Positions 3,707 to 63,416 of a stretch of DNA of 64,000 nt are shown piece by piece. Origin of the DNA: Octopus vulgaris (Eukaryota); contig OX597814.1 in the NCBI GenBank assembly GCA_951406725.2, positions 154,938,001 to 155,002,000 on the forward strand, given 5' to 3'. Within the stretch, counting starts at the first letter, position 1, and the number at the start of each line of letters is the position of its first letter. The position numbers were made by a program, and so were the translations under genes. The notes under the pieces were generated by a model. It did not search any database and was not told the DNA's origin. It saw only the letters and a list, made by a program, of their open reading frames with translations.

Positions 3707-4077
3707 TATATAAGACAAGTTATAGATAATGGTCATTACATATTTTTCCTTTATTACTGCAAATTTGGCTTACAGCTGTTTCCAGTAGTCATTATAGGTG
3801 CCTTACTGATGCGTTTATTGATCAGTTGAGAAAAATCGAACTACCTAAAAAGTTAAAGTTACATTCGTCTGAGCCATTTCTGGTTATACCCAGAAATGAC
3901 TCTGACGAAAGTAGCATAAACTTTTTTTAGATCGTTCAAATTTTCTCAAACGATCAGTAAACCGAGTAAACCTATTGATGAGGTACCTACTATGACTACT
4001 GGAAACAACTGTAAGCCAAATTTGTTCTAATAAAGGACAAATATGTAATGACCATTATCTATAACTTGTCTTATATA
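3707..4077. repeat. ~370-bp imperfect palindrome (foldback element)
   Basis: TATATAAGACAAGTTATAGATAATGGTCATTACATA... mirrors ...TATGTAATGACCATTATCTATAACTTGTCTTATATA; centre TTTCTGGTTATACCCAGAAA at ~3886. Confidence 0.9.
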
Positions 4078-6135: not shown

Positions 6136-9100
6136 CAAAAGAAACAGCAGCAACAACAACAACAATTAATTAAGTTACAATCGACGAAGTTCGAAAGTCC
6201 AGTAAACGCGTTTACGCCAGACGCCGTGGCTAACACAATTACTGAATTTACATATAATCCGGAGGAGGGTATTATATCTCCTGCGTAGTATAAAGGAAAT
6301 TAAAACAACTAGTGCAAATCATGATCAGAGTAGTAGAAATGAAGGCTTTTACTACGAAAGGTAGCTCCTGCCGAGAATGAGTATTGCTGTAGCTTTATTC
6401 TGCCCAAAAAGTCGAGTGAGATTTGTTTCCAAGAAACAGTGGAACTGCTTTCAAAAATTTGCGAGCAAATTGGGAATACTTAAAAAATTATATTTATTCA
6501 CATAGGCGCAGACGCGGCTGTGTGATAAGAAGCTGGCTTCCCAACCACATGTCTATACAGTTAGACACAGGTGGTGACATCTCGATTATAAGCGCGGTTG
6601 CTCAGAAAAAAAATTGGTAAACCGAGGTTATGTAAAACAGCAAAAAATAGCGCGTGGTGTAACTGGCGATAAATTACATTTCTTGGGCAAAACATGTATC
6701 GATGTCACATTTCGAGGAGAAACACGCGAAGTAAAATTATTCGTTGTGGATAACATAGTCAATCTATTTGACTCAGATTAGTTAGGATTATTTGATTTAT
6801 GGTACCTCCACATAAACCTTTACTGCAGTTTAGTAAATGATTGTCTCTTTAAAAACAAACCTTCGGAAGAACTGAAAGAAAAATTGAAAAAATGTTTCCA
6901 CATGTGTTATCGGAGGATTTAGGTCTATGTAGAAAGACGGAAGCCTATTTACAAGTAAGTGAAAACGCTGTACCTGTATTTAAAGCAAACAAAAAAGTAC
7001 CGTTCGCGGCAATTAAAACCGTTAATGAAGAGTTGGACAGACTCAAAAAGAGTGGAGTCATCAAAAAGATGGATTACTCGGAGTGGGCAGCACACACTGT
7101 TTGTATTTAAAAAAATAATAAGATTAGACTGTGTGCTGATTTTCTACATGATTGAACGACTGCTTTAAAACATATCACCATCCACTCCTGACTGCAGAGG
7201 ACATATTTTCAAAGTTAAATGGTGGAAGATTTTTTTCCAAATTAGATCTGTTTAAAGCTTATTTACAGATAAAAGTAAAGGAAAAATGCTCAAAGTATTT
7301 GTCACAGATGATTGTACAGATGCACACGATTACCTTTTGGATTAAAAGTTCCACCAGCAATATTCCAGCAAATCATGGATACTATGTTATCTGATTGCAA
7401 ATTTGTAATCCCGTACGTGGACGATATTTTGATCAAGAATAATTCTCGTGAACAGTATGTGGAACACATAAAAGTTGTGTTTAAGAAAATTAAAGTTTTC
7501 GGGTTTAGTTTGAGTGAAGAAAATTGCAAATTCTTTCTACCCCAAATTAAGTACTTAGGGCAAATAACTAATAAAAGTGGTAGATATCCTGACCCGCCGA
7601 GGGCAGACGCATTAAGGAATATGCTTGCGTTGACAAATATTCCAGCTTTACAAGCATTTCTAGGGCTGGCAAACTACTAACAAAACTATGTTCCTAATAT
7701 GCACAAGTTGAGGCTCCATTGAACGATTTATTTAAAAAAAAAAAAAGGAATAAAGTAGAGTTGGTCCACGAAATCCCAGAACACTTTTGAAGAAAGAAAA
7801 ATTTCTAATCTCAGACCTGTCGTCAGCATATTACGATCCCGAAATGGACATCATTATAGCGTCTCTATGCTTCCGAGTACGGCTTACAGATTACAGTTCT
7901 ACTTCATAAATACGAAGATGGAAGTACAAAATCAGTGGTTCATGTTTCGCGCTCGCTAATAGCGGCGGAGAAGAGATATAGTCAAATTGAAAAGTAGGCT
8001 CTTGCAATTATTTTTGCAGTTAAAAAATTTCACAATTTCTGCATGGCAAAAGTCTTTTTATTGCAGACCATAGACCTTTACTGTTTAATTATGGGTCTAA
8101 AAAAGGGTTACCGACTCATGCTGAGAACTGCCTGCAACGTTGGGGTGTAATATTACTAAATTATAATTTCAAAATGCAATACGTTCCATCGAAAAAGAAT
8201 CGGTCATGCGGACTGCCTTTCGAGATTAATTCCAAAAAATATGGAACCACTAGAAGAGACTGCTATAGCCGTACTGCAGGCAGAAAGTGAAATTAAAAGT
8301 GTTATGACGAACCTTATTCAAGAACTACTAGTGACTACTCAGGCTATAAGAATGAAAGCTCTAGGTGATGAGTATATTAAGAAAATGATAGAAGCTTTTA
8401 AAAGTAAACAGAATAAAAATTCAGATGGCTGTAGTTTTCCAGTTTGCGACGATATTCTGGTGTATGCCCATAGAGTGATGGTTCCAACTACATTACAAAA
8501 CAGTATATTGCAATAATTTCACAGCGGACATCCAGTAATGGCAAGGATGAAGACTCTGATGAAGAGTTATGTGTATTGGCAGTCTATGGACTGAGATATC
8601 GAAAACTTGAGAACTGCCGAGGTTGCGCGCTCGCGGCCAAAGCCCCGCTGGTGAAACATCAATCGTGGCCAGAGACAGAGAACCCATGGTCTAGGTTGCA
8701 CATTGACCATGCTGGACCGGTAAGCAGCGCTTACTACCTAATCGTAGTAGGTAGCTGTACTAAGTGGCCGGAAGTTTGCAGGTGCTATAGACCAACCTGT
8801 AAGACAACTCTAAAGATTCTTATACTTTCTCATGTTGGTTTACCAATGATTTTAACCAGATATTGTAACGTACTCACGCTCACAACTTCTGTTTAATATA
8901 CTACTCTTTTATAGCAATTACCTCGAAGAATCCTAATATTTATTGATACAATCGATGTGGTAGTATTGAGAATGATAAAGCCTGTTGAGTGATAAATATC
9001 TATCCTAATGATATATAATTATGTTCTGAAATCCCACAACTTGATTGACTTTGTTTTTCATCATCCTGGAGTGGGTTATTCTTTTTCCTCTCTTTATCTC

Positions 9101-12746: not shown

Positions 12747-13553
12747 ACAGGTCGGGGAGTTTTCGTCTCATCGTGTCGCCCAAACGCTTCAGACTGCCAA
12801 GTAAAATGTCTGGTTAATAATTTGACCAGGAGGAACAAAGTCTATGCGGACAACTCCTTTCGCATCGATGAAACAAATCAGCATTGTCGTGACATTGGAC
12901 TTCACTTGGCGTGCTTTGGGGGAAAATTGTGACGTTGAATGCTTCTATTGACTTGATTACTGCTTCGTTTCCGGGTCGTAGCCGTAACACCAGCTTTCGT
13001 CACCAGTGATGACCTTCGAAAAAAGGTCTGGATTAACTTTGAACTGTTCTTTCAGTTCACGACACGCTTTCAGTCATGACTACTTTTGATCTTCTGTGGG
13101 CAAGTGAGGCACAACTTTTGCTGCAAGTGTTTTCATTCGCAATTCCTCGCTCAAAATTCTTGGTAGGAGCTCCAGGATACACCATATCAACAAGTTCGTC
13201 AATTGTTCGGCGACGGTCCTCTAAGATCAGTTCATGAATTTTCGTCATGTTTTCAATTGTTCGGGAGGTCGACGGTCGCCCTGAACGAGATTGGTCTTCA
13301 AGCAGCAAGTGACCATATCCAAAGCGTGAAAACTACTCGTAAGCTTGAGTTTTGCTCATGGAGGCCTTGTAAGCTGTCTGAAGCACTGCAAAACAAAGAC
13401 GTACCACGTGGCTGTATGGGTTCACTCAACGGCACCAATTGGCAGACTGATGTCTGAGGGACGCATCAAGTGGCTTCTAGCGGCAGAAGCCTGAACTATT
13501 ACGGGCTTGTCACAGAGAGCATATTTCCGATTACTTTTGGCTACCCCCTAGTA
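12747..13553 (-). mobile_element. Mariner transposon remnant (5' TIR plus partial transposase)
   Basis: RSGRPSTS..IHELILEDRRRTIDEL HTH region, VITGDESWCYGYDPETK, GVVRIDFVPPGQ; TIR-like TACTAGGGGGTAGCCAAAAGTAATCGG at 13527-13553. Confidence 0.9.
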
Positions 13554-17656: not shown

Positions 17657-18868
17657 ATGACTAACTTGCAGGCCTGCAACAGACGAAATTGGTCCGATAA
17701 TGAAATTGATGTTTTAATAAACACTTGGTTCTCTCTTTCCTAAACAGATAATTTAAATGTTTTGTGTTTGAATGAGATTGCCGAAAAAACATCACAAGTG
17801 ATCAACACACGATTCGTCAAACAGATTCGTAGTAAACTGAAACATATCGAAGTATCTTTCAAACTGACAAAAGGCCATTTTGAAAAGCTTCTTTATATTT
17901 TCACTGTTCAAGAACAGCAACAGCTAGAAAATCAGCAGCCACAACAACAACAACAACAGAATGAGCCACTCCTGGTTCCCAGCACAATGGCTGACTCTAA
18001 CATCGGTCAAGCACAACAACAACAACAACAGCAACAAGAACAACAACAGCCACTCCTCAACTCTAGCATACTAGACAATTCACTAAATGCCAGTATCTTT
18101 TCACCGCTCTCACGGCAACCACTACAATTATCATCATCATCATCACCACCGCTGCCACCATCGTCTTCTATCACCAAAAAACCAGAAAGGAAACCACTGC
18201 TCTCTTCCCCCACATCACCACCTCAATACCACTGCAGTAACAAAAACTTAAAGAAACATAGGAAGCAGAATGCGCCCCCCACGGCACAAACAAGAAACCC
18301 CAGAATATGCCGCTATTCACTGCGCCAGAGACTCTGCACAAATAGTGACTGCATCTTCACGCATCTACCTGGCACTAGACGCACTACCGGCCAAGGCCAA
18401 AGCACGCATCCCACAATAACATCAACACCACCAAATAGTAAATCGAAATTCAAAACACACACAACTCGGAATCCCAAAATCTGCCGGTATTCCCAACGTG
18501 AGAGAACATGTCTGCTGAGTGACTGTCCCTTCACTCATCTTCCAGGGACCCGACGCACAAACAGAAACGGGGCTTCAAGCCAACACACAAACCTGAATAA
18601 AAATAAAAATAGAAACACACCATGCTGCAGTGATGCTGGTCCAGTCTTTTCAGGAAGACACAAAAACAACAACAACAAAAGTGGAAACTACAACCCTATC
18701 CAACAGTGCAACCACACCTCCAGTCAAAAACTGCTCCCTAAGCAGGAAAATTCTTTTTTAGCCATGTTGAACATGGCAAAAGAGATACACAAAAATATTC
18801 TAGCCATCACTCAACACCATCCTATGCTATTACCCCAGTGCACCAATTCCCCACATTGCTGCCACTAG
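17657..18868 (+). pseudogene. LINE ORF1 with two CCCH zinc fingers, poly-Q tracts and a Myb/SANT-like N-terminus; one in-frame stop
   Basis: ATG 17657 is in frame with the 368-aa ORF, with TAA at 17741; CRYSLRQRLCTNSDCIFTH and CRYSQRERTCLLSDCPFTH (C-x8-C-x4-C-x3-H). Confidence 0.75.
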
Positions 18869-21510
18869 CACACACAAAAAATCCAAGCCCCCTTACACTA
18901 ACCTCCACATTTCTACTCAATGCACGAGGTGTCAGCCCTTCCATCAATGCACAAAAATGGAAGGTCCAATTCATTGAAGACTGGGTTGGTAACCATCCAC
19001 ACCACATCCCTTTCTTCATTCTCACTGAGACCCACCTTGACAACTCCCACTTGGAAGCCGAAGTGAGAGTAAAGAATTTCACAACCATCCGCGCGGATCG
19101 TATCGGCAGAAGGAAGGGTGGAACTGCCATTTTCCTGCATGATTCGTTTACGGCAGATGGAAATAGTATATTCTCCAACGGCTACTGTGAATCAGTCACC
19201 GTGCACAACAAAGCCAATGACCTGACAGTAATTGGGCTCTATAGGCCGCCCCAAACACCCATACTGTGCTTTAAAGAATGCCTCAACAGCATTAAGTGCT
19301 TTATTCAACAGTGCCATTCTAGCAACTTACTCATGATGGGAGACTTCAATCTACCCTGTGTTGACTGGACTACAAACTGTTTGAAACCAAGCACTCCCGA
19401 CTCAACCGCTGACAAAGAAGCAGCAGAGTCACTTTTCGACTTTATGAATGAGTTTTTCTTGTCCCAACTTGTCCTTGCACCAACAAGACATCAGAACATT
19501 TTGGACCTAGTGTTTAGTAACCACACTAACACTATACATAACGTTACAGTGGAAAAAACCCTTCTTTCAGACCATGACATGGTTCTCTGTAACATGAAAT
19601 TCCACCAGCCGAAAGCTAATCCTAGTGACCTCCCTCCAGCCCACCCATTTGACAACATGGATCTCCATAATGCCAACTGGGATGCAATCAGGAACGAGCT
19701 ATCACATGTTGACTGGTCCTTTACACATACACACATCTCCACCAACCATAAAACATCTTGGCAGATCTTTGTAGACACCGTCACAGACATATGTGCAAAA
19801 CACTCCCCACCAAGACCTGTGAACAAAAAGTGCAGAATCCCCCAAAACAGAAAAACCATTATCAGAAAAATAAAAAGAACAAACAAAAAAATTAACAAAC
19901 TAAAGTACTGCCAACAGCAACACACACATTCGATGGCTATCGCACTGCTTGAATCCAAAAAATATAACCTCCAACAATGCATGAAGACCCTCATCAATAA
20001 CCAAAGATCAGCTGAGGAGAAGTGGGCCATTGAAAAAATCAAACTCAACCCCAAAGTGTTCTTTTCATTTGCGAGGAAACGCAGGGTCACTGTCTCCATT
20101 GTTGGCCCTCTAATTGATGAAACTGGCACTCTCCAAGATAACGCCAAATCCATGGCCGAGATACTGCAGAAACAATACTGCTCTGTTTTCAGCAATCCTG
20201 ATATGGCCGATCTGGGCTGTATCAGTGATGTCAACCCCCAACACACTATATCGGACATAACGTTTAGTGCCCCTGATGTCTTAGCGGCGATAAACGAAAT
20301 AAAACACAATTCAGCAGTAGGCCCCGATAGGTTCCCTGCTTGTGTCCTGAAGGTGTGTCGACACCAACTTGCATCTCCCCTTGCTAATCTGTGGAGAAGC
20401 TCACTGGATGCTGGCTATATTCCAAAAAACCTTCTGTCCCAGTCTGTTGTCCCAGTTTTCAAAAAGGGAAACAAGTCCCTTGCAGTGAATTACCGTCCGA
20501 TCTCACTCACCTCTCATATCATCAAGGTATTTGAGAGGGTGGTGAGATCTCGAATAACCCAATTTCTGGAAAGCAACAGACGGCTGATCTCCAACCAACA
20601 TGGGTTCCGTAATGGAAGGGACTGCCTAACGCAGCTCCTGCATCACTTTGAGGACATTTTGAGAGCTTTGGGAGAGGGCTCCAACACCGATGTCATCTAC
20701 CTTGATTTCAGTAAGGCCTTCGACAGGGTCGATCACAAGATCCTATTGAAAAAACTATCCAACATTGGTGTCTCTGGAAAGTTACTGAAATGGATCAAGT
20801 GTTTTCTGACAGACAGATCTCAACATGTTGTAGTTGAAGGGGTAAAATCAAGCCCAGCCAAAGTCAGTAGTGCTGGGCCCACTTCTTTTCATCATTTACA
20901 TTAATGACATTAATGACATCATCAAGCACAGCAACATAAAAATCTTTGCAGATGACTCCAAGCTACAGAAGGTCATAAATGAGGCGAGTGACCGGACATG
21001 CCTTCAGTCAGATCTACTGGCTGTTATCCAATGGGCAGAAAAAAACAATATGCTGCTGAACGAGGATAAATTTGAGTTAATCCACTTTGGAAAAGAGGAT
21101 GCCCTGAAACTCCCATACTCCCTTCCTTCAGGTGAAACTCTCGCGGCGTCCAACAACATCAGAGACTTGGGAGTAATTGTGGACAACAACATAAGCTGGG
21201 CCACTCATATAAACACCAAAGTTGACATGGCCCGCAGAATGTGTTCCTGGATTCTCAGAACTTTCCAGTCGAGAGATATCCACACCATTATCCTTCTCTT
21301 CTCCACTTTTGCCCGACCCCACCTTGAATACTGTTGTCCACTGTGATCTTCCCACACAATACAAGGTATCATAAAAGTTGAAGCACCTCAAAGGGCAATC
21401 ACAAAAAAGATAGATGGCATGACAGGTCTCGACTATTGGGGTCGACTAGAAAAGCTAAAACTCTATTCTCTCCAACGTCGTCGTGAGCGCTACATCATCT
21501 GCATGATGGG
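18838..21510 (+). pseudogene. LINE ORF2 apurinic endonuclease-reverse transcriptase, frameshifted
   Basis: LTETH, GLYRPP, MGDFN, LDLVF, SDHD endonuclease motifs; YRPISL, QHGF, LDFSKAFD, FADD (20945-20956); PQG motif missing at ~20868 with frameshift; TGA at 21344. Confidence 0.93.
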
Positions 21511-21860
21511 GAAACATCAAAATGTATGTAAAAACAAATTTGTCAAGTTCGTGTCAGATAGAAGAATATATCTAATTATGCCTCATTATTTTTTCCTGTG
21601 TCTAATTTTTAAACAACTTATCACATGTACTAAGAAAGAGCACTGTATACAATAATTTCATTATTATATATTATAAAGTGTATATATATGTGTACATCTA
21701 CACATAAAATACAAAATACAAAGTTATATCTTGATATCGCTAGTGATAACAATACTCAAAATATATCCAGCCTACCTCTACTTCTAGGGGGACATTTAAA
21801 ATTTTTATCCGGACGTCCTACGTCCCAGATATAAAGGTGAAAATAAAATATTTCCACTTT

Positions 21861-35261: not shown

Positions 35262-35468
35262 AGTTAAGCCAAACATGAAAACACAAAGAGAAAACACAGC
35301 AACGCGAGGACGTGGAACAAGTACAGTGTTATTGGACGCCCAGGAAAGAAGGAAAGAAGGAGGGTTTAACGTTTCGAGCGGAGCTCTTCTTCAGAAACAT
35401 ATGAAAAGGAAAGATCCAAAGAAGAGAAGACAGAGAAAAAAAATCGCCAACAGTACACACGCGGTCAC

Positions 35469-35470
<2 letters not shown>
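35262..35470 (-). mobile_element. PLE-type 3' tail with minimal hammerhead motif
   Basis: Minus strand GTTT-CTGAAGA-A-GAGC-TCC-GCTC-GAAAC-GTT-AAAC (35364-35398); flanked on both sides by (TA)n. Confidence 0.7.
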
Positions 35471-35514
<44 letters not shown>

Positions 35515-35539
35515 GCTCAAATATTTCCTCTCTCTTGTG

Positions 35540-35873
35540 GAGATTGTTGCTGGAGCTGGAATCAGCCATGGGTCCGTTCACGTTCGTCAGGCTTCCTACT
35601 CCCACAACTTGACTCTGTGTAACTGTTGGTTATTCCCAAAGCTCAAAAAAATAAAAACGCTGGAAGGGAGAAAATTTGAGGCAACAGATGACATTAAGCA
35701 AAATTCAACGGCACAGCTCTACAGCATCCCCAAAATTGATTTCCGGAAGTGTTTCCTGCAGTGATAGGGACGGTGGCACAAGTGTGTATATTCCCAAGGT
35801 GAGTACTTTGAAGGAGACTAAGTTAAAAATGTTTTTTGGCCAAAGGGTGGGTACTTTTTGATTAGACCTCATA
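35540..35873 (+). mobile_element. Mariner 3' remnant with TIR
   Basis: YSHNLTLCNCWLFPKLK (YSPDLAP.D motif), RKFEATDDIK, YSQGEYFEGD*; TIR-like GTACTTTTTGATTAGACCTCATA. Confidence 0.85.
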
Positions 35874-38214: not shown

Positions 38215-39628
38215 GGATCCTTGTGGCTTGAATCCACAAAATTTGTTCGCCAAAATTTGTTCCAGTTGTTTTCAAATTTGGTATATGGATTAAGTTGTTT
38301 TTTTTTTTACTAATTATGAAAATGAAAATTATTTTGCCTATAAATTTATAATTAAGAAGTTATTAGCCTTCAAAATTTACAAACTTTGGGTATTTTAGCC
38401 AATCAGAACTGAGTATTTTACGCATCACCGTGAAGTTTAGCACAATAAGCAAAGAACTCTGTTTCCATGTTTCCATAGTAACCAAGGAGTATAACCACCA
38501 CGTGTTCCATAACTGTTTGCATAGTAACTAAAGATGCTGCGCATGCGCACAAGGTGTGTAACCACCACGTGTTCCATATCTGTTCGTTTTCATAATAGTA
38601 GGAATTCGATTCGAGAACGGTATAGAGATTTTAGAACAGGGACGAGATGGTTTCAACTTTAAACCTTCCCTGTTTGATGGAATTAATAAAGACATAAGAG
38701 GATGCAGCATATTTCTTCCAAGAGAAAGGAATAATACCAGAAAAGATTTGTAAGAAAGAACATCCCATGGAAAAAAAATCAAAATAAAAAGTGGAAATTT
38801 GTACCGGCGTTGCCAATGGAGAGGCTGCAAAATGTCTGTGTCTCTCCGAAAAGATACATGGTTGGAAGGTGGCTCCCTTTCTCTGAAAACAATACTTCCT
38901 TTTTATACGCCTTGGTGAAGGAAATGGGTCAAGGAAATAAGACACTCGGTTCTTCCAGGAGCCATTATCTTCAGTAATCTGTGGCGAGGTTATAATCAGA
39001 TCCCAGAAATCGATTTCAGACATAAAACTCTGAACCATTGTATTGAATTTATAAACTCAAAAGATGGAACTCACACTCAACAAATTGAGTGCACATGGAT
39101 GTCTTTAAAGCGTGGAAACAAACGCCGACGTGAGACATACCGTTCCATGGTTGACTCTTATCTTTGCGAATTTATATGGAGAAGGAGTTATGAGAAAGAT
39201 AATCTATTTTATAAAATCCTAGAGTGTATTGCAAACTTTCGTTCTTGAAGCTTTTAACTAATAAACGTCTGTCTTAAGCAATGTTATTTCTAGCAACTGC
39301 AGTTGGTTTGCTTGTAGCTTTTATATATTTAATTTGCTCGCGTATGTTTCGGTATTTTTCACTGTTATTTCTTATGCTATGACATGCCGGCACCCCCCGC
39401 CTTCTCGCTACTGTGACAGAGGATGGAAGAAGCAGCGAACGCGCTGGTTTCGATTGGCTGAAAATTCTGAAAATTATAATACTTTGAACACCTGTAACAT
39501 TTTCGCAAAATTTTTCTGGGATAAAGGAATAACAAATTTGGATTCAGCGTCACAAGTTGCACCTATATACCACATTACAAAATCCTTTTAAAGATTTCAA
39601 TATGCAGGAACTCAAACCACGAAGATCC
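38215..39628 (+). mobile_element. Merlin (IS1595/ISXO2-like) DNA transposon, internally deleted
   Basis: Imperfect ~22-bp TIRs GGATCCTTGTGGCTTGAATCC / GGAACTCAAACCACGAAGATCC; interrupts a SINE B 3' end. Confidence 0.8.
38647..39248 (+). pseudogene. Merlin transposase remnant
   Basis: N-terminal C/H zinc region (CKKEH..CQWRGC..SLRKDTWLEG); C-terminal VLPGAIIFSNLWRGY..HKTLNH..F..GTHTQQIECTW..DSYLCEFIWRR; central DE region missing. Confidence 0.85.
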
Positions 39629-43702: not shown

Positions 43703-43844
43703 TCACACACACAGAAGCATGACAGGAGTAAATAGAAACCAATAAAACATCATTTTATGTATATTCTAATTTGTAAAGTTTTATACTTTTCATTAATTGA
43801 CATTTTTATGTTTCAGGTTCTATATGTGGCTGTTTAATCATACC

Positions 43845-44330
43845 ATGTGCAAAAGAAGCCTTGGAACTGTTTGAATTTCAAAGAAGCCGTATTGCAGGTC
43901 ATTCTGAAGGTGGATATCGTCAGCGTAAAATCGCAGAAAGCCTTGGGATCCCGCTTTCTACAGTTAATAGAGTGATTGTGCAATTCACCAGAAGGGGGAA
44001 TGAGTCGACATCACCTCGCCCAAATCAACCAAGACCCTCTGATAAGACCCTTCTCTTTGCTAAGAGAAGTGTGGAGGATACTCCTTGTTACAGAAGAAGC
44101 TGATGTCAGTCCCAAAACAGCTGTCAGGTATCTCCACAAACTTGGTTACTATGGCAGAGCAGCTGGAAGGAAGCCACTCCTTCGACCAGCCAACATCAAG
44201 CGGAGAATATCAGTGAAATGATGGTGAGGCCACTAGCGTTTTGGGACACTGTCATATTCTCTAATGAATCCAGATTTGCTGTATTTCCTGACAGTGGTCG
44301 TGTGTGGGTCTGGAGACTGTGATAAAAAAT
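43845..44330 (+). mobile_element. Tc1 transposase remnant
   Basis: QRKIAESLGIPLSTVNRVI (paired-like HTH), VSPKTAVRYLHKLGY..RKPLL, WDTVIFSNESRF..GRVWVWR. Confidence 0.88.
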
Positions 44331-47087: not shown

Positions 47088-47440
47088 AAGTAGCTTGCTT
47101 ACTAACCACATGGTTCCGGGTTCAGTCCCACTGCGTGGCACCTTGGACAAGTGTTTTCTACTATAGCCTCGGGCCGACCAAAGCCTTGTGAGTAGATTCG
47201 GTTCACGGAAACTGAAAGAAGTCCCTCGTATATATACATGTATATATTTGTATGTGTGTCTGTGTTTCTCCCCACCACAACATCGATGTTGGTGTGTTTA
47301 CATCCCCGTAACTGCAAAAAGAGAACGATAGAATAAGTACTAGGCTTATAAAGAATAAGTCCTGGGGTCGGTTTTTTCGACTAAAGGCGGTGCTCCAGCA
47401 TTGCTGCAGTCAGATTACTGAAACAAATAAGAGAATAAAA
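47088..47440 (+). mobile_element. SINE family B (head at 45024-45062, split by the 2-kb insert)
   Basis: GGCGCAGAAGTGATTGTGTGGTAAGTAGC continues seamlessly after the second TSD. Confidence 0.9.
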
Positions 47441-47583: not shown

Positions 47584-47641
<58 letters not shown>

Positions 47642-47808
47642 TACATATATACAATAGGCTTTTTTCAATTTCTGTCTACCAAATTCAGTCACAAGGCTTT
47701 GGTTAACCTGGGGCTACAGTAGAAGACACTTGCCCAAGGTGCCACACAGTGGGACTAAACCTGGAACCCTGTGATTGGGAAACAAGCTTCTTACTGTACA
47801 GGCACGCC
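47455..47808. mobile_element. SINE B 3' fragment (+) and SINE B 5' half (-)
   Basis: CTTGACAACC..GTTCGGCAAAAG on plus; CTACCAAATTC..AGAAGACACTTGCCCAAGGTGCCAC is the reverse complement of the head. Confidence 0.75.

Positions 47809-49995: not shown

Positions 49996-50002
<7 letters not shown>
49833..50002. repeat. 66-bp inverted repeat with 38-nt spacer
   Basis: TGTAAATGTAATATGTGACAATTATTCGGTAGCCAT..GGGAT / ATCCC..ATGGCTACCGAATAATCGTCACATCTTACATTTACA. Confidence 0.9.
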
Positions 50003-50049
<47 letters not shown>

Positions 50050-50052
<3 letters not shown>

Positions 50053-50195
50053 CAGCTTCCGTCTACTAAATTCATTAATCAGCCTTTGTTCGGTGCGGGA
50101 CTATAGTAAAAGACTCTTGCCCAAAGTGCCAAGCAGTGGGACCGAACCCAGAACCATGTGGTGGGGCAGAAACTTCCTATCACATAGCCACACCT
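50050..50195 (-). mobile_element. SINE family B 5' half
   Basis: CTTCCGTCTACTAAATTC..CTTGCCCAAAGTGCC..GAACCATGTGG..CATAGCCAC. Confidence 0.75.
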
Positions 50196-50879
50196 ATTCC
50201 TATATTTATTTATTTATTTTTATTTTCATTTTTCCTCACTTTGAGTTGCGATTGAAAAGAATATTGACATCATTTTGTCTGAAAGTTTTGTAAATTTTAG
50301 AAATTGTCAATACAATGGTATAAAGTTACATCTGTTTGGTCGCTCGACTTGTAACCCTTCAGATAACATCAAACGGACTTTAGAAAAGACAAGACATATT
50401 CTGCTGTCACTGAAGATGGCTACTCCATCAATGGTAACATGAAATAGTGTTCCCCGATTCCAAGAAGTTACGTCTCTGGGGGATTGTTAAACACCGAATT
50501 ATTTCTCCACATTCCCAAAACCATAAGATGATATGAAAAGTTGTAAACAGTCACGTCTTTTATTACTCGCGTCTGCCTTACTTCACAGTGACCCTCGTAA
50601 CCTTTATGGGAACCATCGGTCCTATAGACGTAGATATACTAGAATCTTGTTTTATGTACAAAGCGAGAGGGAGCCTCGATGTAGTTGCTCAACTAGCTAC
50701 AGATAGCAATGAAATGCTCCGTAAATGACTCCATACCATCCTAGATACAAACTGGATATATCGGACAATGTAGTCATGCATACCTCTAGAAAGACGGAAT
50801 GATCATAGCTGGAAGTCCTTTGCTTGTACTACTTCATAACTAGCATTCCATCGGTTACGACTATGGTACAGCCTGCTCG

Positions 50880-51365
50880 TAAAATTAACATACAAGCGGC
50901 TGAGCACTCCATAGGCACGAGTAATTTTAGCGTAGTTCTCATAGAGATTCAACGTGACAAGGCTGGCTCTTTGAATTACAAGCACTACTCATTTTTGTCA
51001 GATGACAGAACTGGGGGAAACTCAACTAAAGTGTGTTGCTCAAGGACACAACGTGCTGTTGAGTATCGAACTGATGGCCTTACGATTGTGAGCCGAATAC
51101 TCTAACCTCTTTGCAAGTGATAAGGCTCATTACCAAGTCATATAAACTCATAGGACAGATTTTCCGGTTTTCATAACCCTTATATTCCCCACTGGACGGG
51201 ACGCCGCTCCGTCGAAGGATGACTCGTTTTTGACAGCTAGTGGACTGCAGCAACGTGAAATGAAGTATTTTGCTCAAGAACACAACGCATTGCTCGGTCC
51301 AGAAACCGAAACCATAATCTTATGATCACGAATCCAACATGCTAACCACTAAGCCATGCGCCTGC
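50880..51365 (-). mobile_element. Two tRNA-derived CORE-like SINEs (third family)
   Basis: TTGCTCAAG.ACACAACG core twice; reverse-complement B-box GTTCGAT/GGTTCGGT and A-box CATGGCTTAGTGGTTAG. Confidence 0.7.
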
Positions 51366-51849
51366 ACTTGCTGAACCAGGATTAATATGGAATGAACCAA
51401 CATTGATAATAACGACAACGATATCTTCCTACTGAATTTAGAATTAAAAAATAGCCTAAGAATTGAAAGAAAATCTCAGTAATCAAAATCAAACAAAATT
51501 TATGTTTTTACTGCCTCGATATTAGGCAACACACCGACAGGGAATTTCAGCTGTGGCTCAAGTAGAATTGAAAAAAGGAAAATAATCCCTCCCCCCAAAT
51601 AGCGTTGAGTAGAATGCAATTATCACCATGTTGAAATTAATTTCCTGTGTTGTATGCATTTTCAACAAAAAAAAACAAACAAAAAACAATGACCTAAATG
51701 CTTCGTGAAATGGTTGAGACCAATATTTCACGAACTACTTAACTGAGACTCGAAGTCACAATTTTAAGGCACGATGTGGTAACATAGGTTCCGTTGAGTT
51801 AATCTTATTAATCCACTACCCATCACAAACAAACACATAGATACACACA

Positions 51850-51884
<35 letters not shown>

Positions 51885-52200
51885 ACACATACACACACAC
51901 ACAAACACATACACAATCTGCTTGTGAATATTGCTAGAGAGGAGAAATACCCAAGAAGCAAGAACCATGAATATCGTGGGTCATTTGATTTAATTACTGA
52001 TTTTGTAGTCATTGGACTTCCTCCATACTGGGGTAGCCCGCTGGGGATTTTACCAAGAAACGAAAAGCTCTGAACGTGAAGAGACGTAATTAACTAACTC
52101 ACTATACTGTTGTTCGATGCACCAATTCTGCAAGTCTACTGATACTTACATACATATCCACATACTCCTATATGTGTATATATATGTGAGTGTGTATGTG

Positions 52201-52258
<58 letters not shown>

Positions 52259-52427
52259 ATATATATATATATATATATTCAAAAAGCAATAAAGATTCAA
52301 GTTAATTTAAATGAATTTACTTGAATATGGTACCTAACTTAGATGCACCAAAAAAACTATACTGATTTAACAATACAGTAATGTGGGGTGATTATAAGCG
52401 AGAATGAAGCAACAAGAATGGATAGGT

Positions 52428-52518
52428 TTTTAGTACAATCGTTTCATACAAGGACAGGTTTTATTAAAAGTTGCAAAAATTACAGCATATAAACGTGTCC
52501 CGTACTCATCAGCTAAAA
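52428..52518 (-). ncRNA. Type I hammerhead ribozyme motif (mirror copy)
   Basis: Reverse complement of 52753-52843 within the left arm. Confidence 0.8.
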
Positions 52519-52752
52519 TACATGTGAGTTCTCTAGACATCCTAGTGGTTGAGGCTATACTCATGAAGTAATGTAGATAATTAAGTAACATAAACAGATT
52601 TCAAAAGTTCATTAAAGTTCTTTAAAGATGATGTACAGTCTTATCACAGAATTTTAAAAAAAGTCTTAATAGCATCACAGAGAAGGTGACCCAATCCATA
52701 GTGCACATATGAATTTCCAGAGATATGATGAGGGATTACATACTCACATGTA

Positions 52753-52843
52753 TTTTAGCTGATGAGTACGGGACACGTTTATATGCTGTAATTTTTGCAA
52801 CTTTTAATAAAACCTGTCCTTGTATGAAACGATTGTACTAAAA
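52753..52843 (+). ncRNA. Type I hammerhead ribozyme motif
   Basis: Stem I TTTTAG/CTAAAA, core CTGATGA (52759-52765), extended stem II GTACGGGACA/TGTCCTTGTAT, GAAAC (52826-52830), self-complementary stem III ACGATTGT, cleavage triplet GTA (after 52837). Confidence 0.8.
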
Positions 52844-52890
52844 ACCTATCCATTCTTGTTGCTTCATTCTCGCTTATATATATATATATG

Positions 52891-52955
<65 letters not shown>

Positions 52956-53100
52956 ATATATATGTATGTATATATATTTATACAGACACAGACAGACACA
53001 CATACATGTATACATATAGACATACACACCTAAATTTCTATATATGTACTTGCATTTATATATAGGTATGGATATATAATATCGGTATATACATGATTTT

Positions 53101-53151
<51 letters not shown>

Positions 53152-53584
53152 TGTGTGCATTTGTGCATGCAGGTATATATGTGCATGCGTTTGTTTAAGA
53201 AACTGTCTCGATATCTGTTTTTTAGTCAGCATCGCTTGAAAAACAGTAGTTTGTGTTCCTATTTCTTATATTAAAGGTTGCGCGAAGTGACCAATAAAAG
53301 GTATCACAAATAAGCATTAGATATCATATGTTCGACTAGAACCCTTCAACTCCGCCCAGTATGGCTGTTGTCCATAGTTAAAGCAAGTTAAATATTAACA
53401 CACACACACTAAACACATGCACACATACAGAAGCATACACACAAGCACACATATCATGGGCATGGTTCAACAAATGGAGGCAATGAATTCATATGAGAAT
53501 TATAAATGAAATTTTAAAGTTAATAGAAATTTGGCAGCAACTCAAGTTTCATGTTCGTGCAAAATATCTTAGTTCAGTTTAAAT

Positions 53585-54231
53585 CAGTGCTTCTCACCGG
53601 GGGTCCATATGACCCTTTGGGGTCCAATGTAAGATTTTGCTATTAAAATTTATGCGCAATAAATTGGTTAAACTTTTACAATGCACAAAATATTCTAATA
53701 ATTTTTTATAGGCGTGGCTGTGTGGTAAGAAGTTTGCTTCCCAGTCATATGGTTCTGGGTTTAGTCCCGTTGCGTGGCACCTTGGGCAAGTGTTCTACTA
53801 TAACCTCGGGCCGGCCGAAGCCTCTGAGTGGATTTGATTGACAGAAACTGCAAGAAGCCAGTCGTATATATATATATATGTATATTTATGCGTGTGTCTC
53901 TTTGTGTCTGTGTTTATTCCTCCACCATCACTTGACAACCGGTGTTGTTGCGTTTACATCCTCGTAACCTTGTGGTTCGGCAAACGACTGATAGACTTAT
54001 TCTTAGAAAGAGTAACTCCTGGGGTCGATTTCTTCGACTAGAACCTTTCAAGAAATGCCCCAGCATGGTCACAGTCAAATGACTGAAACAAGAAAAAGGA
54101 TAAAAGAATTCCTAATAATATTTAGTTATTGAATGTTTTAGAATTTTTTGAACATCGAATGGCTATGAGGGATCACCTAACAAAAATTGGAATCAAAAGG
54201 ATCCATAGGTAAAAATGACCGAGAACCACTT
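53585..54231. mobile_element. hAT (Charlie-like) MITE containing a SINE B insertion
   Basis: CAGTGCTTCTCA... / ...CGAGAACCACT termini; degenerate 8-bp TSD GTTTAAAT/GTTAAGAT; related 5' end at ~12539. Confidence 0.6.
53709..54105 (+). mobile_element. SINE family B, full length
   Basis: GGCGTGGCTGTGTGGTAAG..GGCACCTTGGGCAAGTG..AGTCAAATGACTGAAACAAG. Confidence 0.88.
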
Positions 54232-55021
54232 GTTAAGATAATCGAAGTTTATTCGTCTCATGCATTGATCGGGTCGCGTCAGGAAATGTTCTAAGCATAG
54301 CTGACAACAATTTACGAGATATTGCGACATTTCAGCTTCCAGCTTTTTCCTCTTTCACCTACATAACAAGCTGCTATTTACTACTCATGACAAACAACAT
54401 CCAGATGCAGCCACAGTTCTAACATGAACCATTATAGACTATCCGAAGAACTATGGCTAACAGTATACCAAAATATTGTAGACCTTCTCAACGACTATAG
54501 GTAATCTCCCATGCGCATACCGTACAGCCAAAATATTTCTTGACACTTAACCAAACATTTTGTGTATGCGAGTTGTCCCATCTCAATTTTATACTTCCTT
54601 GCAGATACCACATTTTCTTGCGTAATTTTGTGAATTACTGCCAGTTACATTTTGTATTATTTTCTGACAATTTGATGATTGAATTCGGAGATTAACTTTC
54701 ATATATCCCAAACGAAGAAAAATATTTCATCCGAACATGAAACTTGAGTCACCGCTAAGATCCCTTTGAATTATTGTACATAAAACACACTACACATATA
54801 TACACATACACTTGCATACACATACACATACATACACGAATTGAATACGAAGTGGATAATGAGACATATTCACAGCCGTTTAAAGTACCACAAGATAAGT
54901 TTTTAAAACTGTTTTAATTCCATAAAATTTATCTCAGGCTGTCTGAAGCCCATCAGCTTGTGTGTGCGTGAGAGAGAGAGAGAAAGAGAGGGAGAGAGAG
55001 AGAGAGAGAGCGTGCGTGTGC

Positions 55022-61399: not shown

Positions 61400-62275
61400 A
61401 GGTCAATTAAAATGTTTGTGGCATATTTCAACTCCTAAAAGCAAATTGACTGTAGTTTGACGACTCTGAACAAATAGGGTGTCCACAAATATCTGCCAGG
61501 CTGCATTTATACTGCCTGGAGTGAGAGACCAATCAACTGAAAGACCAATCAACGAGTAAAAGATCGTGGGTGATTGCATTTTAGTTAGCATTGTGGAGAT
61601 CCATGAAATCAAAAGGGTGTGTTGGATTGAAATCGTAAGGCGTCACAATTGGTTGCTGGAATCTCAGGCTGCAGAGTACTATGTCATGATCAGAAAGAAG
61701 AATTTTTTCCACTGCATTATTGTGGATAGTGTTAGTATAGTTACCACAAATTCCAATGTGTTTTTGGTGAATCTCGTCGGCGCAAGCACAAGTTGGAAAT
61801 GGAAAAATTAGTCCATGAATTTGAATAGTGACTCCACAGCTACCTTGTGGATTTCAAGGTGTGATTAGACCAGTCAATACTCGGGTAAATGAAGTCATCC
61901 ATAATTAAAATATCAGATTGGTGCTGTTGGACGAAAGGTTTAATATTCATGAGGCATTCACCACTACCATGAAACATGGTAGTGGTGAATGTGGCGCCAC
62001 GTAGAGTCCAATTATTGCTAAATCATTAGATTTGTTGTACACATATACTGATTCACAATAGCCACTGAAGAACGAGGCGTTTGGATCTTCGGCAAATGAA
62101 TCTTGAAGGAAAATGGCAACTCTTCCCCTTCTTCTGCCGGTGCGGTCCGCGCAAATGGAGGTAAAATTCCACACTTTTGCTTTGGCTTCCAAGTAGGAGT
62201 TATCAAGGTGGATTTCATTGAGGACGAAGAAAAGAATGTGATGAGAGAAGTCGGCAATCTAATCTTCAACGAAGT
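61400..62275 (-). mobile_element. Older degraded copy of the CR1-group LINE (endonuclease region)
   Basis: ADRTGRRRGRVAIFLQDSF..FSGYCESV.VYNKSNDLAIIGLY closely parallels ORF2 at 19080-19280. Confidence 0.85.
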
Positions 62276-63416
62276 GAATAAGTAATAATAATAAGGTCCC
62301 TGATTATCACTCTCATTGTCAGTATCATTTATAATAACATCAACCCTAGTAACAATTGTATTAGGACTATGGCTCACCATTTCATAAACGCAGGACAAAC
62401 CTGATAAAAGCATAACTGAATATTTGGATGTAATGGAGTATGTAAAAGCTACTAACAACCTATTCTGCTGTGAATCCTTCTGTATATTATACGAGGATAA
62501 ATTCTGCCTCCTTAATTACTTTTCAGTTGACATCACAAAACTTTCTCTCATTACCCTAAATCTCTGTTCCGACTAAACAAATTAGTTCTTCCTTTCAGCC
62601 TTACATTGTACATCTAAAATTTGCTATACTTAGAATTGTCTTGTTTTAGCACCTATCCACCAATCTTGCACCCATTCTGTCTCTCTAATCAACGCACTAT
62701 TACATCACCTGCCTTCTCAAATTTTACTATTCTTTGCTTTTGACGTGACTGACACAAAATTAGTGTCATTATAATTCATGTTTATTGTTTTTTCCCTATT
62801 TACTGTGACTGATTTGTTGTATACTGTTTGCTTGCTCTATATTGATTGTCCATTACGTTTTTCTCCGGTCTTCCTTTAGTTTAGTTTCCCTCAGCAGTTT
62901 TATCTGTCTCCCATTTTTCTATAATTCTTCTTACTTCAATACCCTTTCTACATTTCTTGTCACTATTTTCCAATTGAACTTATATGTATTTATAAACACT
63001 ACTTTTTACTAAGCTATTTGCCCGTGTCTTCTGACGAGGATAATATGATTCTGCATAAGGAGACACTAAAAAATACGTGGCAGTCCATACACTTACAGTG
63101 TTAATGGACTTCATTAGATAATGTACAAGTTACGCACCAGTCATTGTAAATCGGAAACAATTTGAACTATTAGCTGAACGGTGTGGCTCTATCTCACATA
63201 GATCATACAATCATAAAATATCGGTAGATTTGTAATTACCATTCTTTTGGCAAACGTATTTCACGGGTGTATAGCATCCCCTTTGTGGAAGAGTTTTGAA
63301 AGAGCTTACATATTGGCATACTCAGCTACGAAGTGAATTTTCCATTAAGCTGGTGATGTATACTTCACTGTTATATCAGCAGTATTGGCCTGATAAACAG
63401 TATGGTTACTCAAACA

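Follow-up and report, generated by a model that had tools for sequence, protein, structure and literature searches.

The window is a stretch of 64,000 nucleotides on contig 1 of the Octopus vulgaris assembly, from a 2.8-Gb genome rich in microsatellites. Most of its contents look like repeat debris, and no host exon is evident among its non-repetitive ORFs. On the plus strand, positions 17744-21652 hold what we take, from its motifs, to be a LINE-like element, with an APE- and RT-like ORF of 720 aa (18742-20901) and a 374-aa ORF upstream, and positions 61540-62276 are presumably a decayed inverted relative of it. The segments 7305-8893, 13060-13332, 35405-35761, 38919-39245 and 43801-44100 presumably derive from other transposable elements, as they resemble LTR-retrotransposon pol and DNA-transposon transposases. 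In addition, an older inverted repeat of 183 nt (47088-47270 and 47610-47792, 75% complementary) is probably made up of two copies of a short interspersed repeat.

At the locus studied here, a young Penelope-like element (PLE) has left a truncated insertion, arranged head to head, in a (TA)n tract; the features of the insertion are collected in Table 1. TA homology with the target leaves an uncertainty of a few bases at the ends of the insertion, and no target site duplication is recognisable in this TA tract.

Table 1. Features of the insertion and of its hammerhead motif, in window positions; L105 is a natural full-length copy of the parent element.
Feature	Position	Strand	Remarks
Left (TA)n target tract	52200..52279		
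Whole insertion, 599 nt	52280..52878		two 5'-truncated PLE 3' ends, head to head, inside (TA)n tract
Tail-bearing arm	52280..52748	-	L105 4184-4652, final 469 nt of PLE unit; 3' UTR/pLTR, hammerhead, tail
Tail, 113 nt	52280..52392	-	PLE tail, recurs in other copies
Hammerhead motif, copy 1, minimal type I	52428..52518	-	predicted cut 52434/52433; mirrors copy 2
'Spacer'	52530..52741	-	ordinary parent-element 3' UTR/pLTR, upstream of hammerhead
Microhomology ACTCACA, 7 nt	52742..52748		common to both arms at head-to-head junction
Short-end arm, tail-less	52742..52878	+	L105 4402-4538; abuts (TA)n directly
Hammerhead motif, copy 2, minimal type I	52753..52843	+	predicted cut 52837/52838 after GUA
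Stem I, 6 bp, TTTTAG/CTAAAA	52753-52758 / 52838-52843	+	
CUGAUGA box	52759-52765	+	
Stem II base, 7 bp	52766-52772 / 52819-52825	+	with long extension
GAAA	52826-52829	+	
Stem III, self-complementary 8-mer ACGAUUGU	52829-52836	+	
GUA triplet	52835-52837	+	predicted cut 52837/52838
Right (TA)n target tract	52879..52980		

The original prediction described a foldback element made of two identical 137-bp inverted arms around a 212-nt non-coding spacer. The arms (52393-52529 and 52742-52878, 212 nt apart) were reproduced at those coordinates with 100% complementarity, which can be extended on neither side, but the boundary of the element was misplaced, as the 113-nt tail had been missed. The length given for the spacer is correct, but it is not a separate spacer: it is the 3' UTR of the left arm continuing. 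In other copies this sequence runs straight into the arm on both sides, and it is therefore element sequence. The left flank of the window arm recurs base for base beside one arm per insertion and is then followed by (TA)n. In the tandem copies L022 and L074 the tail runs into the 5' UTR, with the ATG of the ORF about 55 nt further on. The short-end arm of the window stops at a fixed upstream end site. First-look searches of the same genome gave 1132-1199 candidates each for arm, spacer and tail. The locus is ordinary debris of a PLE burst, and the suggestion that the insertion is young and non-autonomous is supported.

Each arm contains all the hammerhead parts that had been listed for it (stem I, CUGAUGA, stem II, GAAA, stem III and GUA). 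The core CUGANGA/GAAA/NUH is accompanied by stems I and II and a palindromic stem III, as in minimal type I hammerheads, and the proposed assignment to this type agrees with both motif and covariation. The Rfam search that had been suggested as a check returned no hammerhead family at E<=10 (52380-52880) or at E<=5 (50000-55000), a miss that is likely explained by the long stem II and the minimal stem III. Folding of the isolated arm was not more stable than that of shuffled sequences (z -0.76 to 0.17). With Rfam and folding both silent, the motif itself and the covariation seen in related families are the basis of the hammerhead call. In an alignment of 7 related rows, which is not independent of the proposed structure, 97.3% of cells are paired and 7 of the 17 pairs have changed on both sides; none of 500 shuffles reaches this level, and slid controls reach 26-51%. 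The conserved core and covarying stems expected of other copies were thus found, with stem I UUUUAG/CUAAAA in this family vs UUUCGG/CCGAGA in related families of the same genome. The self-complementary 8-mer of stem III is kept in four sequence variants, and its self-duplex has a computed energy of -5.8 kcal/mol, with -6.4 to -10.0 for the sister variants.

Judging from the sequences, the parent element conserves the hammerhead as part of its pLTR, and the presence of the motif on both strands at this locus is a by-product of the inversion. Catalysis by the motif is likely to occur, as a predicted activity, only as a dimer or with a protein. In the accessible part of PMC4209133 no cleavage was observed for a single minimal motif, and according to PMC11167929, likewise available in part, the hammerhead motif of an anole PLE required protein. 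A read-through RNA of the octopus locus is predicted to fold into a 137-bp helix of about -290 kcal/mol, in agreement with the duplex originally proposed. Since both motifs lie inside this helix, a read-through RNA would bury both of them, and because they lie on opposite strands, a cis dimer at this locus is excluded. A self-cleaving RNA from either strand, as had been envisaged, is therefore doubtful.

The proposed link to PLEs was confirmed, as a parent PLE with an RT and GIY-YIG ORF is present in the same genome. The genome-wide search for an autonomous PLE bearing this arm identified L105, whose unit of 4652 nt comprises an intact ORF of 952 aa, a 1.5-kb 3' UTR, the hammerhead and the tail. 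The ORF (L105:4660-7518) contains the RT motifs FDINSYY, PMGSS and YRDD and the GIY-YIG motif VIY..YIG, and so combines RT and a C-terminal endonuclease in a single frame, as in EN+ PLEs. Pfam scored GIY-YIG at E 0.0023 on an ORF fragment, below the cut-off, and gave no match on an 816-aa piece of the ORF; PDB gave no match on the full ORF. Its Atlas neighbours are carriers of GIY-YIG, HTH_animal and RVT_1, at 0.95-0.98. Among 14 additional loci fetched, 5 further open ORFs of 949-957 aa were found. These intact in-frame ORFs suggest that the family may be currently active.

The intact ORFs of L105, L175, L176, L177, L179 and L180 (949-957 aa) contain two Asn-rich inserts, one between RT and thumb and one between thumb and endonuclease. 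The lengths of the inserts differ between subfamilies with the frame kept, as described for rotifer Penelopes. Partial tandems forming pLTRs, a feature of PLEs, are found in L176, L178, L180, L185 and others. In the full-length copies L176, L177, L180 and L185 the upstream pLTR starts within 6 nt of each other (L105 4238-4243), ~175 nt before the hammerhead core; this clustering could reflect the start of transcription or descent from one source. The inverted arm of L176 ends at the same point as its pLTR start, though this arm is shorter by one whole unit.

The clade was assigned by comparing motifs with the accessible part of PMC8557442. Like the Hydra clade PLEs described there, L105 has RWK (IRWKT), DKT replacing DKG (PADKTG), a CxCx5C linker (CKCRIKSKC) and CxxC and CxH around E and N (CQLC..E and N..CVH), and it has no CCHH, with only one Cys between VIY and YIG. 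The octopus family also shares with this clade the (TA)n target, a canonical hammerhead near the 3' end, an inverted truncated copy and a tail at one end. It differs in its unit of 4.65 kb, compared with a tendency to <3 kb in the Hydra clade, a length that is due to the Asn-rich inserts and the long 3' UTR. The tail (113-120 nt, compared with 30-40) and the stem II region (~60 nt, compared with short ones) are longer too, and the octopus hammerhead matches none of the sequences in part 2 of the supplement of that paper, one cephalopod entry included. By these motifs the parent is a new Hydra-type PLE family. The Neptune clade, a first guess, was ruled out by the same motif comparison.

At least two further related PLE families are present, with identities of ~88% and ~67% over the RT part; both have inverted ends and hammerheads of their own that covary. 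Their loci are L151, L152, L165-L167 and L170, and L153-L156, L158, L161, L164, L168 and L169. Open ORFs of 842 aa are numerous in the 67% family, which has RW without the K of the RWK motif.

Across the family, 120 loci were compared against L105 and collapsed to 85 insertion clusters, which were mostly chosen as best hits and are thus skewed to young, arm-containing copies. They consist of 60 simple head-to-head pairs, 18 singles and 7 complex loci. The adjacent inverted 5'-truncated copy with a tail at one end, as known from PLEs, is the form taken by the simple pairs: 53 of the 60 combine one tailed and one short end, the other seven have one end damaged or beyond the locus, and neither two tails nor two short ends were found together (0 each). 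Three loci scored as single (L001, L093 and L117) have a tiny inverted short arm below the length filter. Because the clusters were picked as best hits, an exact-pattern check was run on contigs 1-2. There, a tailed arm in head-to-head orientation was found within 10 kb for 36 of the 49 short ends; short-short pairs were absent, and all tail-tail pairs belonged to a single multi-unit locus. Visual inspection of the 66 exact arms listed for contig 1 placed 46 of them in head-to-head pairs. At the complex locus L055 the two inner arms, both tailed, meet head to head, and the outer ends are again one short and one tailed. Copies that end at the short site can be of more than unit length (L179, L180 and L186).

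The 5' ends of insertions were also compared in 30 tail-picked loci. L087, L108 and L119 have an identical 5' end at L105 3962 (3/30), and further clustering is seen near 3922 and 3940; the recurrent ends near 3962 are possibly an RT stop or an RNA end. No locus of the 30 starts within 3 nt of the edge of stem I.

The predicted ribozyme cut is located upstream of both end sites, and a cut RNA would therefore yield copies starting at the cut. Exact 27-mer matches to the arm continue through GUA in 1004 cases, and only 4 differ just before the cut: point changes account for two, a tiny palindrome for the third, and the fourth, L190, begins at the cut. As 1004 of 1008 arms cross the cut site, the template RNA appears to have been uncut nearly always; the hammerhead, on the evidence of these copies, left the RNAs templating these insertions uncut. 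The lone 40-nt insertion L190 runs from the predicted cut to the short site, between two (TA)n tracts, and is the only candidate product of a cut RNA. Since the covariation indicates that the hammerhead is under selection in the family and the template seems to be uncut, the motif is likely to act at another step, as a dimer or with a protein, a function that is predicted here. No RNA run is listed among the public sequencing runs that contain the family. Contigs from three presumed RNA runs and one DNA run cover all bins of the element; no splice joint is listed across the tail and 5' UTR, and one contig bridges the junction unspliced. These contigs show neither starts, strand nor level.

The anatomy, the parent ORF and the family statistics are direct observations; from such genomic products, and from one in vitro study of another clade, we infer cutting, priming, a shared RNA and joining. 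In the proposed mechanism, the element protein would cut both strands of a (TA)n target, and both target-strand 3' ends would prime on one uncut RNA at two fixed TA-like sites, namely the tail end and a site ~113-120 nt upstream of it. Both cDNAs would extend 5'-ward, often halting at the same place, and their truncated ends would be joined, via microhomology where available (7 nt in the window). This asymmetric twin priming, as proposed, would account for the one-of-each rule, the lone short-end copies, the coincident ends and the shared variants. The best explanation as a whole, comprising the anatomy, the parent, twin priming on one uncut RNA and the joined cDNAs, is probably correct. Asymmetric twin priming by itself is favoured with a confidence between even and fairly good, and its obligate form, in which a two-armed insertion would always combine a tailed end with a tail-less one, stands at an even chance. 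In the twin priming of L1 elements, both target strands also prime on one RNA and the junction is made by microhomology, and the two cDNAs span adjacent, non-overlapping parts of the RNA. The octopus cDNAs, unlike those of L1, overlap, which results in long inverted repeats, and their start sites are fixed.

The strongest competing explanation, which we regard as clearly less probable, is a fold-back of the first cDNA, which would snap back at its 3' end and self-prime; an endonuclease would then trim the product at a TA-rich site, and central deletions would make the arms unequal. The 5' ends of the two arms lie within 20 nt of each other in 20 of the 53 pairs, compared with a permutation mean of 2.1 and a maximum of 9 in 10000, and several of these pairs have perfect palindromic centres. 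In addition, a rare variant is common to both arms of the same insertion in 22 cases, vs 0.24 in cross-pair controls, and three of these searched genome-wide gave 2, 3 and 3 matches and are thus nearly private; among singleton variants, 12 are shared by both arms vs 22 unshared. The palindromic centres and the near-private variants are explained by fold-back at least as well as by twin priming. Later gene conversion between the arms would also account for the shared variants at least as well; a single assembly does not separate it from twin priming on two RNAs. Outside carriers of the shared variants were ruled out as source elements, as both are short truncated copies, and A-to-I editing was ruled out, as there is no A>G excess among the 12 singleton shared variants.

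A cDNA begun at the short site would hold no tail, yet in 16 of 53 pairs the short-end arm exceeds the tailed one, by up to 3.7 kb; the tailed arm is longer in 17 of 53. These symmetric differences could have arisen from later central deletions of palindromes. Lone short-end copies, which also count against fold-back, make up 4 of the 18 singles. The short end itself reads TCGCG|TA in 32 of 53 pairs, TCGCT|TA in 9, TCG|TA in 7 and otherwise in 5. The extra G is untemplated, is found in 330 exact cases genome-wide and is about equally common whichever arm is longer (11/16, 9/20 and 12/17); the same signature in either role argues against fold-back. In sister subfamilies the ends fall at the same two homologous sites, which also counts against fold-back.

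Twin priming on two RNAs is a rather improbable variant, in which a protein dimer would hold two RNAs from one source locus, possibly paired through the palindromic stem III of the hammerhead, and each RNA would template one cDNA. The self-complementarity of stem III in all four of its sequence variants is consistent with such pairing, as are the unrelated 5' ends in 33 of 53 pairs, and the shared variants could be variants of the source locus. Alone, this variant leaves the strict one-tail/one-short rule, the excess of coincident ends and the near-private variants unexplained.

A mobile non-autonomous family, MITE- or retrozyme-like, copied as a 599-nt unit of arm, spacer and arm, is very unlikely. 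End-to-end distances of 64-5720 nt mean that there is no fixed unit, and arm lengths range from <100 nt to several kb among copies; with such sizes and asymmetric ends, the insertions do not form the one fixed unit with symmetric TIRs of a MITE. The motifs are on opposite strands instead of bounding a monomer as direct-repeat hammerheads, so a retrozyme circle would not be formed. The MITE-shaped family of fixed layout that the original prediction had proposed was thus not upheld, and the genome-wide search it called for gave 2 exact junctions, the window's included, among ~1000 arms. The second, L172 on contig 22, has unrelated flanks, as a copied unit would. However, L172 is 96% identical and has five variants diagnostic of the L180/L137/L146 subfamily, none of which occurs in the window copy and three of which are present in both arms of L172. 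It most likely arose separately, by an independent joining at the same 7-nt homology, an apparent hotspot, which is the simpler reading of these variants. Microhomology is not the rule in the family: the junction overlap is >=3 nt in 16 of 53 pairs, and gaps or inserts are found in 22 of 53. These overlaps are from BLAST and run slightly high vs an exact-match null (>=3 nt in 5.7%). An assembly or chimera artefact, to which perfect inverted arms beside microsatellites are prone, can practically be dismissed, as dozens of copies share this asymmetry although their junctions vary, the difference between left and right ends follows a rule that a fold-back read would not produce, and 19 public runs contain half or more of the family's words.

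The anatomy that asymmetric twin priming is meant to explain (an inverted 5'-truncated copy, a one-sided tail and dual hammerheads) is already published. According to the accessible part of PMC8557442, both strands of Penelope-13_HM of the Hydra clade (C-terminal EN+) bear a hammerhead, and the 5' end of this element is occupied by an inverted copy that is itself 5'-truncated. In the available part of PMC4209133, pairs of minimal hammerheads that lie on opposite strands at a distance of 100-700 bp are tied to truncated PLEs. Like the metazoan PLE hammerheads described there, the octopus motif is of type I, with a long helix II and a short palindromic helix III; unlike them, it has G-U at position 10.1-11.1, where sister subfamilies have G-C, and its CUGAUGA box is not followed by an additional base.

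In the sections of PMC11167929 at hand, the PAc protein of an anole Poseidon element cuts and extends both strands, is a predicted dimer and uses uncut RNA, and RT starts at two internal RNA sites, which delimit the tail. The AT-rich target is common to PAc and the octopus PLE, for which two RT start sites, extension on both strands and an uncut template would apply as well. PAc belongs to another clade: its hammerhead overlaps the start codon and its RT start sites lie inside the ORF, whereas the octopus sites are upstream of the ATG. Those sections report no strand difference in the start site for PAc and do not treat inverted insertions, whereas the octopus ends always differ. For head-to-head PLE junctions, the part of PMC3846280 consulted favours self-priming on an antisense template. 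The Penelope of Adineta vaga described there resembles the octopus family in its inverted pLTR overlapping the direct one, one-sided tail, palindromic junctions and Asn-rich ORF inserts, and differs from it in its low copy number.

Non-LTR retrozymes and MITEs are likewise short, non-coding and hammerhead-bearing or foldback-shaped, and the octopus insertions differ from them in having no direct hammerhead repeats, no fixed length, asymmetric ends and no TSD. Retrozymes have been presented as PLE derivatives in a 2026 bioRxiv preprint (10.64898/2026.07.22.740005), as far as its accessible part goes. Neither the one-tail/one-short rule nor twin priming in PLEs was found in the literature searched, and subscription papers and supplements may hold either.

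Section 15 of PMC8557442, in its accessible part, leaves open how tandem and inverted structures are formed, what underlies the bias to microsatellites and which role the hammerhead has. The octopus family is very young and present in high copy number, which allows this unexplained PLE insertion geometry to be counted. The strict genomic rules (one-of-each ends, coincident truncation, an untemplated base and no ends at the cut site) are testable by reconstitution. If true, one rule of twin priming would cover the one-sided tail, the inversion and the palindromic centres without an antisense template, and obligate twin priming would put the conserved hammerhead outside template production. For the host, ~1000 arms, many in perfect inverted pairs of up to several kb, may be a source of long double-stranded RNA and may also form unstable palindromes in the genome.
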